IMG/VR virus record: IMGVR_UViG_2526164619_000008
Coordinates: 1 to 12,640 of that record
Source: a virus
Taxonomy: Duplodnaviria; Heunggongvirae; Uroviricota; Caudoviricetes
DNA length: 12,640 nt
Reading direction: 5' to 3' (one strand)
How positions within the stretch are numbered: position 1 is the first letter of the stretch; the number at the start of each line of letters is the position of its first letter. Of the stretch, positions 1 through 10,353 are shown in pieces. The notes below the pieces were generated by a model. The model was not told the origin of the DNA. It saw only the letters and a list, made by a program, of their open reading frames with translations, and ran no database searches. The position numbers were made by a program, and so were the translations under genes.

Positions 1-141
1 TTACTGCTTACACTGTAAGAATGCCGCAAACTCCGCTCCCCAGAAGCTCATCCGTATTTCGCACAGCGAACCGTGCAGCATCCAGATGATGAGGATTGCC
101 GTCACGCAGAACGTGATGGCCGTAAGCGATTTTTGCGACAT
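1..141 (-). CDS. Hok/Gef-family type I toxin-like small membrane peptide (46 aa)
   Basis: Minus-strand ORF, ATG at 141..139, stop at 3..1, translation MSQKSLTAITFCVTAILIIWMLHGSLCEIRMSFWGAEFAAFLQCKQ. Hydrophobic N-terminal segment followed by SLCEIR and G-x-E-x-AAF with the same spacing as plasmid R1 Hok (recalled: ...[23 protein letters not shown]...). AGGAG about 8 nt upstream of the ATG. Too short to appear in the supplied ORF track. Confidence 0.6.
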   Translation of the reverse strand: MSQKSLTAITFCVTAILIIWMLHGSLCEIRMSFWGAEFAAFLQCKQ

Positions 142-331
142 AGCGCTTGCTCCTTTTTCGGGGAGGCGCTAACCTATCACTTGCTTAGGGTAGACGGTTA
201 GGGCCTCGGTTAAACAAAAATGTTTTCCGGGGCCTTTCCACATCTGGCCTTCAGGTATTCCCTCCGACCATCAGCCGAAAGGCACCCGCGCGTAATCTAT
301 CGCTTTTTTGTTACTCCGGCAATTCTGCTCG

Positions 332-592
332 TTAATTCTGAGGTAAGGGCAAACTCATCTGATTGTTTCCTCTGTGTGAAGTTGGCAGTTCATGCCACGG
401 GATGCCCTCTGATGAGTGAATGGGGGAGGCGTGCTTTGAAGTGAATTTGTGGAAGGCTTCCAGTGTTGAGAAACATACGCCGCATTCTAGATTGTTACAC
501 TGATAATACTTTTGTCTCACGGTGTTTGAATCATTTTCCGGACGACTGGTGCGGATACGGGCAGATGCGCCACAAAGCGGACAACGGAACAT
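332..592 (-). CDS. ogr: Ogr/Delta-family zinc-finger late-gene transcription activator (86 aa, divergent)
   Basis: Translation begins MFRCPLCGASARIRTSRPE...YYQCNNLECG, matching the P2 Ogr N-terminus (recalled MFHCPLCQHAAHARTSR...YHQCQNVNCS) and its Cys-x2-Cys...Cys-x4-Cys arrangement. It sits downstream of gene D in the same orientation, as in P2, but with cargo in between. Confidence 0.7.
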   Translation of the reverse strand: MFRCPLCGASARIRTSRPENDSNTVRQKYYQCNNLECGVCFSTLEAFHKFTSKHASPIHSSEGIPWHELPTSHRGNNQMSLPLPQN

Positions 593-654
593 AGCGACCT
601 CTCTTATTGTAGTGCTTGCACTATTCTAGGTTGTATTCTCTAAGATTTAAACAT

Positions 655-1496: not shown

Positions 1497-1504
1497 CAAA
1501 GATA

Positions 1505-4336
1505 TTATTCTGATGTCACTCTTTGCGAGTGAGCTATTTTTAAATCAGCGTTTCCTTCAAATACTATATTCAACTCATAGTTAAGAGTTAGCTTGAATTT
1601 ATCTGAGTCACTTTTGATATTCTCTGAAGTGACATTTACTAACTTATTATTATCATATTCTCTAATAATTAATTTAGTGAAGTAGTTATCCTTTACCACT
1701 AGAGAAAATGGTTGATTAACAAATGGTAAGAAGTAAACCTTACAGGTACCGGATTCAGTAGTTATGTTCATAGAGCCATCATCATTTTTTCTCATTAGTT
1801 CTCTGAGGTTGGGATTATCGAAAAGCATACGATTATATTGCTGAAAGATCTCTTTACTCATCACAAGAACCAGTTTGCCAGCCAAGTCAGCAGATGATTT
1901 TATGTGATCAATCAACATATTGAAATCTTCTATTACGGTATGTTGCGAACAGCCAGTGCTAAATAAATTTGAAAGTATTATTCTCTGGATGTCCTTGAGA
2001 ATTAAGTCTGCTTGAATATCACCTTCATTGATATAAGGGATGGATTCTATTCCTTCGGCATACGGTTCTTTATCTATCTTAATAGATATCTTATGTTTTG
2101 TGAAACAATCGCTAGCCTGCTTAAAATCAATAGATTTGAAAAGTGAAAGAGGGAGTGTTTTCTTGATGCGTTTACGAAGATGTTCTGATGTTTTACGTGC
2201 AGTGCTATCTAGTCGATGTACATCTATGGCAGCATCCTGAAGTCTCATATCAAGATCTTTCTTTAGCATGTTAATATGCTCTTGAAGCAACTTTCTTAAG
2301 TTTTCTTTTTTTGTTTGGAGATCGTCCAATGTTAAAGTCAGCTTGATTTTAGTGTATTCGATGGAGTTACAAATTTTTGATAATACTCCAATGAGTCGTT
2401 GCTTCTCACGATATGTTATATAGTTTTTTTCTATTGCTTCTTTTATTTCTTTTGATACGCTATCGTTCTTGTTAGAAAAAATTAATAATAGCTGAACCCA
2501 TGATTGTTCCATATCAATAAATCCACAGTCAAAAACATTACTGTAAACTCTGCCCATCACCATGTCTGTTTTATCATAGTCACGTAAACGCCTTGCTAAA
2601 CTATTCATCCACCCATTGTGCTCCATATTTTCAGACCATGTCCACAGGCAGATTCTAATTAATATCTTGATTAGTTGGCTTGCATTATCAATTTCTTCAG
2701 TGGGAGTTTCATATCCACCGGTTTGGTCAATAAGTTTACCCTCTAAAATAAGTTTAATGTAATGTGTCATTAATTTGTCAGAAATATTGATTCTTGATGT
2801 CAGATAAAGACATGTGCATATACGCATGTCAGTCAACGCATTTATGATGGCAATATTGAACCACTCTCTGTCTGAATTGAAGTTTAGTTTTTTGGATATG
2901 AAAAAACCCGGGTTAAAAAGCTGGCCTTTGTAACTGTATTTTTCTACCGAATGGCTGTCAATATTCATTGAGTGCTGCCATCGGTTAATAAGAACGACGG
3001 CTGTATCAATAGTAGAAGGATCGCGAGTCTGTGTTGCATCAATAATCATCGATGGAAGTTCTTGTAGTTGCGTTTTGCAAAATAATTCAAATAAATCTGA
3101 ATTCTCTGTATTGCAGAAACGAAAGTTTATGCTTTCTTGATATTGCTCCCAAACAGTGGTATAGGTTCTTAATATACGATTATAACGTGAACGAAGCGAG
3201 GCATTTAAGAGTGATTGGTTGTTTCGGAACCATTCTGTTAATATTGACCATTGTGAACGAGTAATTCCCATATAGATACAAAGTTCATTGGTGATAAGAT
3301 GTTTTCTATTATTGATAATACGCACTCCGCTCCAAAGACATAATTCAAAAAATCTTTCAGAAAGATTAATTTTATCCATGGAATTATTTGATATTTTATA
3401 AACTTCATCTGAAAACTCATATTGAAAACTCCGTTCAAATAATTCTGTAGTGATCAGTAAGAAGTTATTGTTGGTATTATCATCTTGAAAAAAATACAAA
3501 TCGCAGAGATTATTAAAGTTATTAATTAATGCAGAGATAGCATTGTCAAAACTAATGAGATCAGAATCCCGCAGATACATATACGTATCTGCTGTTATAG
3601 CCTGCATTGTAAGACTTACGGAAAAATCTCCTCCTTTAATCGGAGCCCTATAAAAACATTGCTTAAGTATTTTTATTAATAAGCTGTCTGGTTTGATATT
3701 TTTAACGCTAAAAAGTATCTTACCCGTGGATTCTGTTTCTTTTGTACGATTATCACCAATGACAAATGACGCAAAATGATTCTTCTTTTTTAGTTGGTAA
3801 TTAATAAGATTAAGAGTAAGTTGAAAAGGACGGTGATATAAACTTAACTCATCTTCCTTAGAATAACTGCTAGCCACAGATATGTATTCTCCTTTGTAAC
3901 CGGCTTGCTTGATTTCTAAATTTGAATAGTTATGTTTTTGATAGATAGGGTATAACCTAAGCTTGGCTGAGATTTTGTTACAAATATGGGGCATTACTAT
4001 TTCGAAGGCAATGTATCGCTTTATAATTATTTGCCGTTTTACATCATCAAGAATTTCAAGACTCACGATAAAGAACCAAATAGAAAGAACTATGTTTATC
4101 AAAAGCCATAATATGCTGATTAGACAAGCTATACCATAAAGATAACTTCCAAAGACAGTTTTAATTAGTACACTGAGAAGTATAAATCCTGATAAGAAAA
4201 GCCCGCTGAGTCCAGCAAGCATGAATCCTGAGTAACGCTGATAAGCAGTTTGGGCTATTTTTCTATCTGCCTTTTTTTGGAATAAGACACTTACTAAACC
4301 TATAACAAGTGGGTATACAATACCAATAATTGTCAA
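1505..4336 (-). CDS. Large orphan protein (~943 aa) with a hydrophobic N-terminal region (about three predicted transmembrane helices) and a long Ile/Asn/Lys-rich soluble domain with coiled-coil-like stretches; function unknown
   Basis: Single uninterrupted ORF in a visibly AT-rich segment. The ORF-track start is TTG at 4336; the first in-frame ATG is at 4222 (codon 39), so the true start is uncertain. No Walker A or other catalytic motif recognised by eye. Confidence 0.7.
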   Translation of the reverse strand: MTIIGIVYPLVIGLVSVLFQKKADRKIAQTAYQRYSGFMLAGLSGLFLSGFILLSVLIKTVFGSYLYGIACLISILWLLINIVLSIWFFIVSLEILDDVKRQIIIKRYIAFEIVMPHICNKISAKLRLYPIYQKHNYSNLEIKQAGYKGEYISVASSYSKEDELSLYHRPFQLTLNLINYQLKKKNHFASFVIGDNRTKETESTGKILFSVKNIKPDSLLIKILKQCFYRAPIKGGDFSVSLTMQAITADTYMYLRDSDLISFDNAISALINNFNNLCDLYFFQDDNTNNNFLLITTELFERSFQYEFSDEVYKISNNSMDKINLSERFFELCLWSGVRIINNRKHLITNELCIYMGITRSQWSILTEWFRNNQSLLNASLRSRYNRILRTYTTVWEQYQESINFRFCNTENSDLFELFCKTQLQELPSMIIDATQTRDPSTIDTAVVLINRWQHSMNIDSHSVEKYSYKGQLFNPGFFISKKLNFNSDREWFNIAIINALTDMRICTCLYLTSRINISDKLMTHYIKLILEGKLIDQTGGYETPTEEIDNASQLIKILIRICLWTWSENMEHNGWMNSLARRLRDYDKTDMVMGRVYSNVFDCGFIDMEQSWVQLLLIFSNKNDSVSKEIKEAIEKNYITYREKQRLIGVLSKICNSIEYTKIKLTLTLDDLQTKKENLRKLLQEHINMLKKDLDMRLQDAAIDVHRLDSTARKTSEHLRKRIKKTLPLSLFKSIDFKQASDCFTKHKISIKIDKEPYAEGIESIPYINEGDIQADLILKDIQRIILSNLFSTGCSQHTVIEDFNMLIDHIKSSADLAGKLVLVMSKEIFQQYNRMLFDNPNLRELMRKNDDGSMNITTESGTCKVYFLPFVNQPFSLVVKDNYFTKLIIREYDNNKLVNVTSENIKSDSDKFKLTLNYELNIVFEGNADLKIAHSQRVTSE

Positions 4337-4871
4337 TTGGCCACTTAAAATGGTTGTTTGCCATTCGGTTAATGAATGCCTAAACGGGAAATAATGTAAA
4401 AGATTATTTTTTATAAATAATTCGTTTAAATATCCAACATAAAGTAGTACAAATGAAAAAGCTGATATGCAAAGTACTGATTTAACCGGTGAGGATGTTA
4501 ATCTTATGATGTTTTTTCAATAAAATTCCATTTTAAATTCGAATAAAATGGATTTTTAACCATTTTATTACGAACATAGTTCTTTGCTAAAATCTCTGTT
4601 GCACTTAAAAATTGTCCAATCATGAATTACTCTTCTATAAAGTGTGGGTCTACTAACTAAACTGGAATTTTTACTATTGAGTCATATTCCCTTGGACGGG
4701 ATGGACTGTGAAGATTATACTTGACTTCCTCTGTCATGTGGGAAAAACATCCGTATTATTGTTAGCATCTGGTTGATGCCCCAACCTCTGACATCTAGTG
4801 GGCTGATACATTATCTTTTGTTCTTACTGTCAGTGTAGAAGCACATCTCAAAAATAATATTTTTAAGAGAT
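4337..4871 (-). promoter_or_regulatory. AT-rich ~535-bp non-coding leader between the D stop and the cargo ORF; presumed promoter/regulatory region
   Basis: No ORF longer than ~26 codons on either strand; composition shifts abruptly at the gene D stop codon (4872). Confidence 0.35.
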
Positions 4872-5980
4872 TTATTCTATTTCTGCTATCCATTCCGGGA
4901 TTTTTGCTTCAAGTTCAAGCTGCGTGGTAAAGCCGCTGTTATCAATGGTGTGCTCGGCTTTTGCAATAATCCAGTCCTGATAATCAATCTCGCTTTTAAA
5001 GCCTGTCACTGTGCCATGCATTTCGGGATAGAGTTCTGCACGACCACGCGCCAGCGTGATGGAGAATGATGCGGCTCCGCGTTGTAGCTGCTGCCACTTT
5101 GCCGCCGCTGCGCGTCTTGCTGCCTGCTCGTTCTGATAAGTCTTGCGTAACACAAACACGTTGCCTTCCGCACCTTCCATATAGTCGCCTTCCCGACTGC
5201 TGCTTTTCTCCTTTTTGGGTTTTGGCGGTTTGCGGCGTTTCACGTTGACTTTTTTCTTTTCCCGTAATTAAGATCAAGCCAGTAGGCGCGTACCCCTGTA
5301 TACGCCTCGCGGTCAGCAATGCGGAACTGATGGCGATCGCCGCTGCTGCGTGTAATGGCGAACGAGGGCAACGGCTGCCCCTGTGCGTTCACGCCACCAC
5401 CTGGCATGATGAATAACAGATTGCCGCTTTTTACCGTGGCGATTGCTCCCAGCATTTCCGCCATGCGCGTAAGAAAGGACATGTCGCTTTCTTCGGTCTG
5501 GTCGGCGTGGTCGATTTCGATATCCATCAGCATTTCGCTGATTTGCGGTTTCAGGCCGTACCGATGAGCGATGGCGGATACCACACGCTCAACGGTCACA
5601 TCATGCCAGGACACCTCACGTTTAACGTTAAATTCATCCCGAAAATCTGCGCTTCTGGCTGAAACAGTCAGCCTGTCCGGCGGTCCTTCGTGAGCGATTT
5701 CATCAACAATGTAAGTGCCTTTTTCTGTCAGCGGTTCCCCTTTCCAGCCAATGAGAACCGTCAGACGCGCGCCCCGTGGCGGTAGCTGCAACTGACCATC
5801 CGCATCATCCAGCGTGATGGTGAGCTGGTCCGCCTCAAATCCCCGGTTGTCGGTCAGTGACAGGCACATCAGGCGCTCCGCCACGCCTGACAGCGTTTTA
5901 CCCTCCGAGAGAATATCAAAATCCGGCATTTTCACGGGGGCCGTGCCCTGACTGAGCAATTGCATGGTGGTGTCGGTCAT
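4872..5980 (-). pseudogene. D: P2-type tail protein D, interrupted by one frameshift in a homopolymer run (5250..5255)
   Basis: Two adjacent minus-strand ORFs (5240..6112 and 4872..5243) together match gpD (LTDNRGFEADQLTITLDDADGQLQLP..., SWHD, ITRSSGDRHQFRIADREAYTGV, REGDYMEGAEGNVFVL, GFTTQLELE). Adding one A to the AAAAAA run restores ...GKRKKVNVKRRKPPKPKKE.... Likely start is ATG at 5980 (MTDTTMQLL) with AGGGAGGGAG upstream. Confidence 0.85.
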
Positions 5981-6137
5981 CTGCTCCCTCCCTGTGCGGC
6001 ATGGTCGCATGTGCGTGCGGATGGGGTTACTGCTTTTTGTTGTCGCCGTGGCGGGAGAACGGCGCAGGGGTGAGATTGCGCGCGTGGTGGGTGATGATTG
6101 TTGCTGAATCATTTAACGGATACAAGGGGCTGAAGCT

Positions 6138-8389: not shown

Positions 8390-8444
8390 GGTAATGCTGC
8401 CAACTTACTGATTTAGTGTATGATGGTGATTTTAAGGTGCTTGC

Positions 8445-8720
8445 GTGGCTTCCATTTCCATCAGATGTCCTTCCTGCACCGCTACTGAAGGCGTGGTGCG
8501 TAACGGCAAAAGCACTGCCGGACATCAGCGCTATCTCTGCTCTCATTGCCGTAAAACATGGCAACTACAGTTCACTTACACCGCCTCTCAGCCCGGTACG
8601 CACCAGAAAATCATTGATATGGCCATGAATGGCGTCGGATGTCGCGCCAGTGCACGCATTATGGGCGTTGGCCTCAACACGGTTTTACGTCACTTAAAAA
8701 ACTCAGGCCGCAGTCGGTAA
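8445..8720 (+). CDS. insA: IS1 InsA (91 aa; GTG start in this copy)
   Basis: Same protein as 719..994 with one substitution (S12T); start codon GTG here versus ATG in the first copy. Confidence 0.95.
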
Positions 8721-9142
8721 CCTCGCGCATACAACCGGGCAGTGATGTGATTGTCTGCGCTGAAATGGACGAACAGTGGGGCTACGTCGGTGCTAAATCA
8801 CATCAGCGCTGGCTGTTTTACGCGTATGACAGGATACGGAGGACGGTTGTGGCGCACGTCTTCGGTGAACGCACTCTGGCCACACTGGAGCGTCTTCTGA
8901 GCCTGCTGTCGGCCTTTGAGGTCGTGGTATGGATGACGGATGGCTGGCCGCTGTATGAATCACGCCTGAAGGGAAAGCTGCACGTTATCAGCAAGCGTTA
9001 CACTCAGCGCATTGAGCGACATAATCTGAATCTGAGACAACATCTGGCAAGGCTGGGACGGAAGTCACTGTCGTTCTCAAAATCGGTGGAGCTGCATGAC
9101 AAGGTCATCGGGCATTATCTGAACATAAAACACTATCAGTAA
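8639..9142 (+). CDS. insB: IS1 InsB reading frame (InsAB' via -1 frameshift at A6C 8696..8702)
   Basis: Same as 913..1416 with one substitution (R55H). Confidence 0.9.
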
Positions 9143-9157
9143 GTTGGAGTCATTACC

Positions 9158-10353
9158 GAGTCGCGCATGGTGGCCCCGTTCCATTTGGGGTTCGGATGAC
9201 CGTTCTCCGTTGTTGCGTGGTATTTTGACGGGCAGTTGACAGTCAGAAACACCGCTTTGTCACCACGGGCTTCGGCCAGAGGTTCCAGCCCCTTCATGGT
9301 GGCCATCATTTCTGCCTTACGGTGAACCGGGTTACTTACTCCCGCGTAATACACTGTCTCGAGATCAATCGTGAACCCGTCTTCATTTTCCAGCATGAAA
9401 CTTTTCAGGAAATCGCGTGTTTTCTCGCGCTGTGCGCGAAACTCGCTTAACGCGTCCTGGCTCAGATAGGGCGATGTTTTTCTGAAAACCAGACAGGCGG
9501 CGCGGAGTTGTTCTTCTCTCCACTCGCAACGTAACAGCCACAGTTTGCGTTTCCACCATTCTGCACAGGTCAGGCGAAGGATTGCGCCCGGCAGCAGCTC
9601 CGTGTCCGGTTCGTTCCTCCGGTCTTTGTCTGTTGTCAGTGCGTCATAATGTGGAGGCATGGCGTGCAGGTGTAACGCCATGCGGGCCAGCATCTGATAC
9701 GCCTTCAGCGTTACATCCATGGTCAGTTCGCCATCGGTCGCGCCAAAGCCATCGCAGAGTTTTTCGAAGGTGCTGCTGAACATCGCTGCCGTCATGGTGG
9801 CCAGTGTCTGTATCTGGTGTTTGTTGAGCTGCGGCAGGTAAAGCAAATCGTCCAGGCGTTCGCGTCCGGCAAGGGAGCGATAACCCTGTGTCAGCCAGCG
9901 GTGATCGGTGCGCTCCAGACGTTCGAATATTTTGCGCAGGTTTCCGCGCGCGTAGCGTTCAGCCTGCCAGCTCTTTTTGCCTTTCTGACGATCGGCTTCC
10001 TGTTTTTTGCGCAGGAAGGAGAGGTGGCGAATAAGCGGATCGCGCAGATAGGACGGCAGCAGGCGCAGCGAGGCCATGGCTTCATCCACCGCGCCGCGTG
10101 CCTGTTTTCTGGCATCTCCTGCCAGTGTGATGGTTTTGTCCTGTTTTTCCTGTGCGTCCAGGCTTTTATTAATCAGGTTGCCCAGCGGCGTTGCGGAGAA
10201 CGCCGCATCAGCCATTTCCTGGCGGCGCTCGTTCTCTACCCGGTAGGCATCCAGCCAGGAGGAAAGCGCGGATTCAGGAGCGGGGATCCCCGTTCCTTCA
10301 CGCCCCACTGCGTGGCGCGGTTGTTGCCAGTCCCTGATGTACTCTGCCGTCAT
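9158..10353 (-). pseudogene. A: P2-type replication initiation protein A, N-terminal ~398 codons only; 3' part replaced by IS1
   Basis: Translation has HAVGREGTG and FLTVNCPSKYHATT blocks resembling recalled P2/186 A-protein motifs; the ORF runs from ATG 10353 into the IS1 right end, whose sequence supplies the last 7 codons and stop. P2 A is ~761 aa, so the catalytic C-terminal half is missing. Confidence 0.7.

Follow-up and report, generated by a model that had tools for sequence, protein, structure and literature searches.

Predicted hok/sok-type toxin–antitoxin cassette without a mok leader frame at the right end of a P88-like prophage

The toxin gene and its position behind ogr

The window, i.e. 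the whole stretch of 12,640 nucleotides of a caudoviral record (IMG/VR IMGVR_UViG_2526164619_000008) that was analysed, starts with a small gene on the minus strand which is separated by 190 bp from the late-gene activator gene ogr. The positions of both genes and of the predicted RNA elements between and beyond them are listed in Table 1. The small gene is translated into MSQKSLTAITFCVTAILIIWMLHGSLCEIRMSFWGAEFAAFLQCKQ, a peptide of 46 amino acids with an N-terminal hydrophobic helix and cysteines at positions 12, 27 and 44. The helix is followed by SLCEIR and GAEFAAF, and the peptide therefore shows the succession of hydrophobic helix, (S/D)LCE(I/V/L)R and E-x-A-x-F that characterises Hok/Gef proteins. 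In an alignment with HokA, HokW and Hok of plasmid R1 the residues C27, E28, E37, A39 and F41 were invariant.

Table 1. Features of the hok-type cassette and its neighbourhood. Positions are those of the window unless stated otherwise; mRNA positions refer to the minus strand and count from the predicted 5′ end (+1) at window position 287.
Feature	Position	Strand	Remarks
hok-type toxin CDS	1..141	-	ATG start, 46 codons, TAA at 3..1
hok Shine-Dalgarno (SD) sequence AAGGAG	155..150	-	8 nt 5′ of ATG, read directly
Start-codon helix, 3′ strand UUUGCGGCAU	19..30	-	predicted long-range pairing with hok AUG and first codons (141..133)
sokT stem-loop GAGGC...GCCUC	163..207 (mRNA +81..+125)	-	predicted from Rfam alignment structure, RNAalifold and truncated-RNA fold
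ucb-like box GGAAAGGCCCC	229..239 (mRNA +49..+59)	-	predicted partner of tac when 3′-trimmed, of the GAGG region when closed
tac element GGGUGCCUUUCGGCU	273..287 (mRNA +1..+15)	-	two mutually exclusive predicted partners, fbi and ucb
fbi AAGGCACCC	L001 (VG38) 5943-5935, 57-65 nt past window position 1		partner of tac
Predicted hok promoter	294..322	-	-35 TTGCCG 322..317, 17-nt spacer, -10 TAGATT 299..294
Predicted Sok promoter	147..175	+	-35 TTGCTC 147..152, 17-nt spacer, -10 TAACCT 170..175
Predicted Sok RNA, ~56 nt	~182..237	+	complementary to mRNA +51..+106
mok-equivalent frame (hok frame -1)	184..8	-	open for 58 codons; judged not a gene
Leader uORF	169..243	-	invariant AUG at +45, 24 codons in the window; judged non-coding
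ogr/Delta late-gene activator	332..592	-	Pfam Ogr_Delta, 52.3 bits; upstream neighbour, not part of the cassette

The sequence-only reading had proposed a 46-codon Hok-type gene with a good ribosome binding site at this position, and both proposals were borne out. The Pfam family PF01848 (HOK_GEF) matched residues 7-44 over profile positions 5-42 of 42 with 29.9 bits (E 4e-7; gathering score 22), and PHROG 251 ('MokW-like host killing') matched with an E value of 1.3e-22. Two NCBIfam models gave matches below their cut-offs, the Hok subfamily model with 21.6 bits against 73 and the HokA equivalog NF007290 with 34 bits against 89. For this reason an identification of the toxin as HokA was rejected, even if some sources still label it 'protein HokA'. 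No PADLOC model matched the cassette and a sequence search of the PDB yielded no match. Pairwise identities were 43% to HokA of strain K-12, 39% over 31 residues to R1 Hok and 31% over 35 amino acids to HokW. The unusual C-terminus FLQCKQ had been taken as a sign of a divergent member. The divergence was confirmed, while the tail itself proved to be normal for the HokA-like branch (HokA ends in AAFLACKLKE). From these comparisons, the open reading frame is assigned to the Hok/Gef-type type I toxin genes as a divergent member, which by sequence is closest to HokA, yet is neither HokA nor HokW.

The gene and its family label are already known. The identical protein (RefSeq WP_000078916.1) is present on at least 1000 contigs in public collections, where it is named 'Hok/Gef family protein' or 'protein HokA'. 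For comparative analysis 12 related cassettes were aligned with that of the window, and in each of the 13 the Hok frame had a length of exactly 46 codons. The six more diverged relatives gave dN/dS values of 0.13-0.55 at dS of up to ~1.9, the six closest relatives being uninformative in this respect with at most 7 changes each. GGAG/GAGG of the SD sequence was kept in 12 cassettes, and the thirteenth, KFu022, has AAGCAG.

With regard to the genomic setting, the hok -35 box follows the ogr stop codon (334..332) at a distance of 10 nt, both being on the same strand, and a consensus promoter/terminator scanner found no terminator between ogr and hok. Positions 1..640 of the window are 99.8% identical to the genome of Escherichia coli VG38-53E1 (hereafter VG38), the sole difference being a synonymous one at position 22, and this genome was used for the inspection of the sequence beyond the window start. 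There, fbi and a terminator are followed by a junction to host DNA: the homology common to all E. coli strains, which comprises ihfA and its terminator, ends at position 5739 (L001), 261 bp past the hok stop codon. The adjoining segment L001 5740-5860, located between hok and ihfA, matches the intergenic arm beside the integrase gene of phage Chuche and is a homologue of an attP arm. Hence hok, placed between ogr and att, is the last gene before attR. An observation of its own is that the enterobacterial sRNA family STnc540 matched L001 5639-5783 (+) above the Rfam gathering score, covering the 3′ end of ihfA and the terminator; the prophage junction lies inside this match, which implies that integration replaces the 3′ part of the sRNA.

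The same cassette was found at 93-94% nucleotide identity, always directly after ogr, in the phages P88 (gp52), Chuche (CDS0012), 500465-2 and P884B11 (Peduoviridae, Xuanwuvirus). Because of its presence in these phages the cassette is assigned to the cargo of a P88-like (Xuanwuvirus, P2-related) prophage and not to host DNA, which settles a question that the sequence-only reading had left undecided. The alternative of a chance open reading frame or of a host-chromosomal gene has only the small size and the position at the window edge in its favour. It is refuted by the Pfam, Rfam and PHROG matches, by the occurrence of the gene inside the P88 and Chuche records and by the host junction lying 260 bp further out, and deserves practically no credence. 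Together with ~1300 E. coli chromosomes the P88-like cassettes span 93-100% nucleotide identity; they occupy the same place, encode the same 46-aa protein and differ in nothing of substance, and their records annotate only the coding sequence ('Hok/Gef family protein', 'MokW-like host killing'), without Sok or RNA elements. Some P88-like phages carry extra morons between hok and att; Chuche has a com and methyltransferase pair there and P88 other DNA, and the region is therefore regarded as a variable moron slot.

A block of ogr plus hok (at least 80% query coverage) was detected in 1158 of 5426 complete E. coli genomes (~21%), and the hok cassette alone, at lower stringency, in 1756 genomes and at up to 9 places per genome. 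Besides P88-like phages, related cassettes of 74-87% identity were found elsewhere. Prophages at serS and at a tRNA-Leu carry them behind ogr, in one case as two copies in tandem; in Stx2 phages they lie on the downstream side of lom; others are situated between J and a tail-fibre gene, or beside rpmE2 in an island that contains remnants of traT/traG. The cassettes share homology from the -35 box to fbi or the terminator. The tandem pair, found by serS in a P2-like prophage of E. coli JNEC-KY203 (L006 1188-1328 and 1660-1800), consists of two different 46-aa hok cassettes after ogr. One belongs to the prophage type and the other to the island type, and their Sok-target sequences have diverged.

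Further observations concern the remainder of the window, in which two direct copies of IS1 are present. The copy at 664-1431, located 72 bp upstream of the start codon of ogr, is a simple insertion that duplicated 9 bp of target sequence, and it is absent from the 99.8%-identical genome. The copy at 8390-9157 connects the tail-tube region directly with a truncated gene for the replication protein gpA (9136-10353, minus strand). This implies that most structural genes were lost in an IS1-associated deletion and that the prophage of the window is a defective remnant, in which the hok cassette is intact. An AT-rich block of ~3.5 kb (~1500-5000; 32-36% GC against ~52% in the flanks) separates ogr from what is left of tail gene D. 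It contains an open reading frame of 943 amino acids (1505-4336, minus strand), the counterpart of which in VG38 has 1039 amino acids and is annotated as 'MFS transporter'. No match to the 943-aa protein was obtained from Pfam, NCBIfam, PADLOC or PHROGs, nor by tblastn against 50,697 phage records. DNA of this insertion was found in 5 of 5426 E. coli genomes, and in P88 and Chuche gene D follows directly after ogr; the block is regarded as a rare orphan inserted into a moron slot and as a possible defence-gene candidate. Gene D (Phage_GPD) is split into the overlapping partial frames 4872-5243 and 5240-6112 (minus strand), both below the Pfam gathering score, and appears to be disrupted at the edge of the insertion; its VG38 counterpart is a short 'VgrG/Pvc8 family' protein in RefSeq.

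Predicted RNA switch and antisense gene of the leader

Full-length alignment of the Rfam family RF01794, in spite of its name a model of the mRNA leader on the strand of hok, was obtained for model positions 1-157 on 287..128 of the minus strand with 46 bits (E 6.5e-9). The score is below the gathering score of 59, as would fit a diverged branch. Position 1 of the model coincides with the predicted 5′ end of the mRNA. All 13 cassettes have kept TTGC of the -35 and TA.A.T of the -10 element of the hok promoter, with the spacing unchanged. The match of this promoter to the consensus is only 8/12, and for this reason it was missed by the scanner, which called neither the hok nor the Sok promoter and reported solely the 3′ hairpin and the terminator. 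In the alignment of the cassettes, 58% of the leader columns are invariant as compared with 51% in the coding sequence, so that conservation of the leader is no lower.

The first 16 nucleotides of the mRNA are invariant in 12 of the 13 cassettes, OkiPb_J_hok lacking one C. Within them, GGGUGCCUU of the tac element is predicted to pair with AAGGCACCC of fbi, which corresponds to the fold-back of the R1 paradigm. The fbi element, a 3′ protective hairpin (GACGGGGG...CCCCGUC) and the terminator are located downstream of the hok stop codon, just outside the window; the order expected beyond window position 1 is GACGGGGGAGCAATCCCCCGTC, then fbi, then a terminator of the form CCCGCAG...CTGCGGG-T. The minimum-energy fold of the 408-nt transcript (-174.5 kcal/mol, z = -7.0) is closed by the tac/fbi helix. 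When this full-length fold was imposed on the 13 cassettes, 90% of the cells were paired, as compared with 37-43% with the partners slid, and compensatory changes were found at 18 pairs, 5 of them in the helix between Sok target and 3′ UTR and 4 in the 3′ hairpin. For the tac/fbi helix alone the value was 92.7%; its GCACC core pairs in all 13 cassettes, and its two inner pairs (columns 7-8) are unpaired in most of them.

If the RNA is trimmed to the 3′ hairpin, the predicted fold switches to tac/ucb pairing together with the sokT hairpin, in agreement with the RNAalifold consensus. Thus, two mutually exclusive conformations are predicted for the hok mRNA of this clade, as is the case for the tac/fbi and tac/ucb conformations by which hok mRNAs are defined (PMC9841398). 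In both predicted conformations the hok AUG is paired. Its partner, and that of the first codons, is UUUGCGGCGU within the AAFLQ codons at the 3′ end of the coding sequence; the pairs are kept in all 13 cassettes and include changes from U-G to C-G. The nucleotide-level invariance of the AAFLQCK codons is attributed to this helix, in which the difference from VG38 at position 22 turns a U-G pair into U-A.

A putative antisense gene, consisting of the Sok promoter and a terminator, was located within the leader by positional homology and conservation and not by promoter strength. The complement of the Sok -10 element, AGGTTAGCGCCTC, and GCAAG are invariant in the 13 cassettes. In phage 933W the hexamer TAACCT likewise precedes the annotated sokW 5′ end by 6 nt, and the position of the promoter is homologous to that of TTGCGC/TATCCT in R1. 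The annotated sokW served as the model for placing the ends of the predicted Sok RNA, which would terminate in a hairpin of 10 bp (200..236, +) followed by UCC. The predicted energy of this hairpin is -30.7 kcal/mol (z = -3.9). The Sok hairpin and the target loop form the most variable part of the leader in the 13 cassettes, which would fit copy-specific antitoxins in genomes with several cassettes.

The 190 bp between ogr and hok had been expected to hold a mok frame, an antisense Sok RNA and the pairing elements. A Sok-type promoter and terminator as well as pairing elements were indeed recovered by folding and promoter search of 142..331, the promoters being recognised by conservation and not by the consensus scanner; fbi, the 3′ hairpin and the terminator were found to lie outside this interval, and a mok frame was missing.

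Absence of a mok frame

The mok-equivalent frame has the register of mok in R1 and stops 5 nt before the hok stop codon. That it is open across the hok gene and has no start codon had been noted from the sequence alone and holds true for the window; upstream of the hok ATG it contains no ATG, GTG or TTG. The open frame is not conserved. In 11 of the 13 cassettes, including those of P88 and Chuche, it is cut by a TGA formed by TGT-GAA at Hok Cys27-Glu28, and in the window it stays open due to the synonymous codon TGC for Cys27. The overlapping frame is thus best explained as an accident of one synonymous codon.

Other candidates for a leader frame were considered as well. An in-frame extension of hok as in hokC, hokW and hokA was rejected, as a conserved TAG 27 nt upstream of the ATG blocks the kind of extension annotated for mokW, mokA and the R1-like plasmid pMTY1886. 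The start of mokA is not comparable, because the hokA leader of K-12 is split by IS150. The uORF beginning with the AUG at +45 was rejected as a substitute, since it varies in frame and between 1 and 61 codons among the 13 cassettes. No open reading frame of any frame starting with ATG, GTG or TTG runs through the hok SD sequence in the window, nor in 10 of the 13 cassettes, and a search by eye for near-cognate mok starts revealed nothing conserved. A three-way alignment with the leaders of R1 and hokW is too ambiguous for placing individual bases. Taken together, the clade of 46-aa hok genes lacks a mok leader frame. A literature search for mok-less hok loci returned nothing relevant, which is not proof of novelty.

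For plasmid pMTY1886 (IncFII; L005 440-659), the hok locus of which encodes a protein 100% identical to R1 Hok, it was observed that an upstream 'mok' ATG is in frame with hok, that the classical Mok frame is present without its start, and that the RefSeq annotation is limited to a 33-aa 'Hok family toxin' with a start within hok.

In R1, translation of mok is required for Hok synthesis, and mutations of the mok start codon abolish it (PMC9841398). This result, the lack of mok in any frame in 10 of the 13 cassettes and the pairing of the hok AUG in both predicted conformations would agree with a translationally silent relic, in which no Hok is made as nothing opens the AUG helix and which hitch-hikes like the inactivated hok loci of K-12. 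Such a relic is, however, improbable. The open reading frame is intact with 46 codons in all 13 diverged cassettes at dN/dS below 1; promoter elements, fbi, ucb and the Sok -10 element are invariant across unrelated flanks, and tac is so in 12 of 13; the strong SD sequence is retained in all cassettes except KFu022; and viable phages as well as about a third of E. coli genomes have retained the cassette. One would not expect a dead locus to be conserved in this way. Instead, the HokA-like clade of 46-aa proteins, present in P2-like and lambdoid prophages and in islands, may represent a naturally mok-independent hok system. Such a system would have kept the tac/fbi/ucb/sokT switch and lost the leader frame that is deemed indispensable in the R1 paradigm; we put forward both parts of this proposal tentatively.

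Relation to known loci, proposed mechanism and candidate roles

With plasmid R1 the locus has in common the fold class of the toxin, the predicted fold-back (tac/fbi) and switch (tac/ucb), the sokT and 3′ protective hairpins, and a predicted Sok promoter placed so that it overlaps the region of the hok SD sequence. It differs in the length of the toxin (46 against 52 amino acids), in its location in a prophage instead of a plasmid and in the lack of the mok frame: in R1 the mok SD sequence and AUG sit in the sokT stem-loop, where the cassette of the window has no start codon. The hokA/mokA/sokA locus of K-12 resembles the cassette in the protein (43% identity, MxQK start, AAFLxCK tail), in the GGGUGC 5′ end and in GCACCC of fbi; HokA has 50 amino acids and an annotated in-frame mokA extension, in place of which the clade of the window has the conserved TAG. 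The hokW-sokW(-mokW) loci of 933W and Sp5 are likewise prophage-borne and have an identical Sok -10 element. HokW is RelF-like, however, with 51 amino acids and an annotated in-frame mokW, and its slot is near the immunity end of a lambdoid phage and not between ogr and att.

The lom-adjacent cassette of Stx2 phages such as Lyz12581Vzw is a closer relative, with 83% nucleotide identity from -35 to fbi, 74% protein identity and the same tac/ucb/fbi elements and Sok promoter. Phage family, neighbourhood and terminator are different, and the Sok-target loop has diverged. An identification of this cassette with hokW was rejected, as according to the 933W annotation hokW is a different locus encoding 51 amino acids; the experiments of Takada et al. 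therefore provide family-level support only. In 933W itself, the 429-bp gap between lom and ST933Wp67 (NC_000924 45428-45856, L015) has no annotated feature, as judged from the annotation and not from the sequence, and in related Stx2 phages the slot matching this gap holds a 46-aa hok cassette. If the gap holds the cassette too, Stx phages would carry two unrelated hok loci, the 46-aa one and hokW.

On this basis, the locus is very probably a complete type I toxin–antitoxin cassette of the hok/sok type, ~440 bp long from -35 box to terminator, which a P88-like prophage has at its right end as a moron. The interpretation draws on the Hok peptide, which is under purifying selection, the hok-family architecture of the leader and the conserved antisense promoter and hairpin. 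Against it stand the Rfam score of 46 instead of 59, the two NCBIfam Hok models that remained below cut-off and the weakness of both promoters in terms of consensus.

In the proposed mechanism, the promoter just past the ogr stop codon would give rise to a stable mRNA of ~400 nt, in which tac at the 5′ end is locked to fbi on the 3′ side, the Sok target is paired with the 3′ UTR and the AUG is held in the long-range helix, and which would be neither translated nor bound by Sok. Slow 3′ trimming to the GACGGGGG...CCCCGUC hairpin would remove fbi and allow the formation of the tac/ucb pairing and the Sok-target hairpin. The short, unstable Sok RNA would then pair with +51..+106, and the duplex would be destroyed, as by RNase III in R1 and hokW. 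If the supply of Sok stops, be it by loss of the element or by transcription shut-off by an infecting phage or on induction, Hok would be translated from its own strong SD sequence, insert into the inner membrane and depolarise or kill the cell. As there would be no mok coupling, unlike in R1, hokC and hokW, control would have to act on the fate of the mRNA and on the initiation region of hok. For the transcription of Sok, decay by RNase III, processing of the 3′ end and toxicity, the proposal relies on family-level experiments on R1 hok/sok (PMC9841398) and on hokW-sokW, an experimentally established type I toxin–antitoxin system (PMC8621323), and killing or membrane depolarisation by the toxin would be expected from these relatives.

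Candidate roles of the cassette are prophage addiction, abortive infection or exclusion, and help in lysis. The last of these would build on read-through from the late tail operon and ogr into the cassette, swamping Sok upon induction and thereby assisting phage release. Support comes from hokW-sokW, which advances lysis and doubles the release of Sp5 (PMC8621323), and from the short same-strand distance between the ogr stop codon and the hok -35 box, with no terminator detected in between by the scanner. Lysis help as the main role is nevertheless rather unlikely, given that HokW belongs to a different branch of Hok proteins (31% identity), that the same cassette is found in non-phage islands and downstream of lom where such read-through logic does not apply, that it is intact in a defective prophage remnant, and that a 5′-extended read-through RNA would have no tac element at its 5′ end.

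A role in addiction or defence, by which cells losing the element would be killed or infections by host-shut-off phages aborted as in R1, is the more attractive candidate and is proposed here with some reservation. It accords with the family paradigm, with the variable moron slot beside att to which Chuche adds com and a methyltransferase, with the persistence of the cassette in an IS1-riddled prophage remnant, and with the tandem or multiple copies with diversified Sok-target sequences. On the other side, no PADLOC model matches, and we know of no chromosomal hok locus that has been shown to stabilise anything.

For annotation, the comparison assigns the gene to the prophage and allows the placement of Sok, tac, ucb and sokT, and of fbi outside the window, the left edge of which cuts a known toxin–antitoxin cassette at its stop codon. 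The mok-less hok clade is very common, being present in between about one fifth and one third of the complete E. coli genomes. If the reading of a mok-independent system is true, the switch and Sok would govern only the access of Sok and the decay of the mRNA while Hok starts from its own SD sequence, and the cassette would define a third moron slot, between ogr and att, in P2-like phages. The clade would then be a natural test case for what mok contributes, and its lack of mok could serve for testing how hok translation is gated without a leader peptide.
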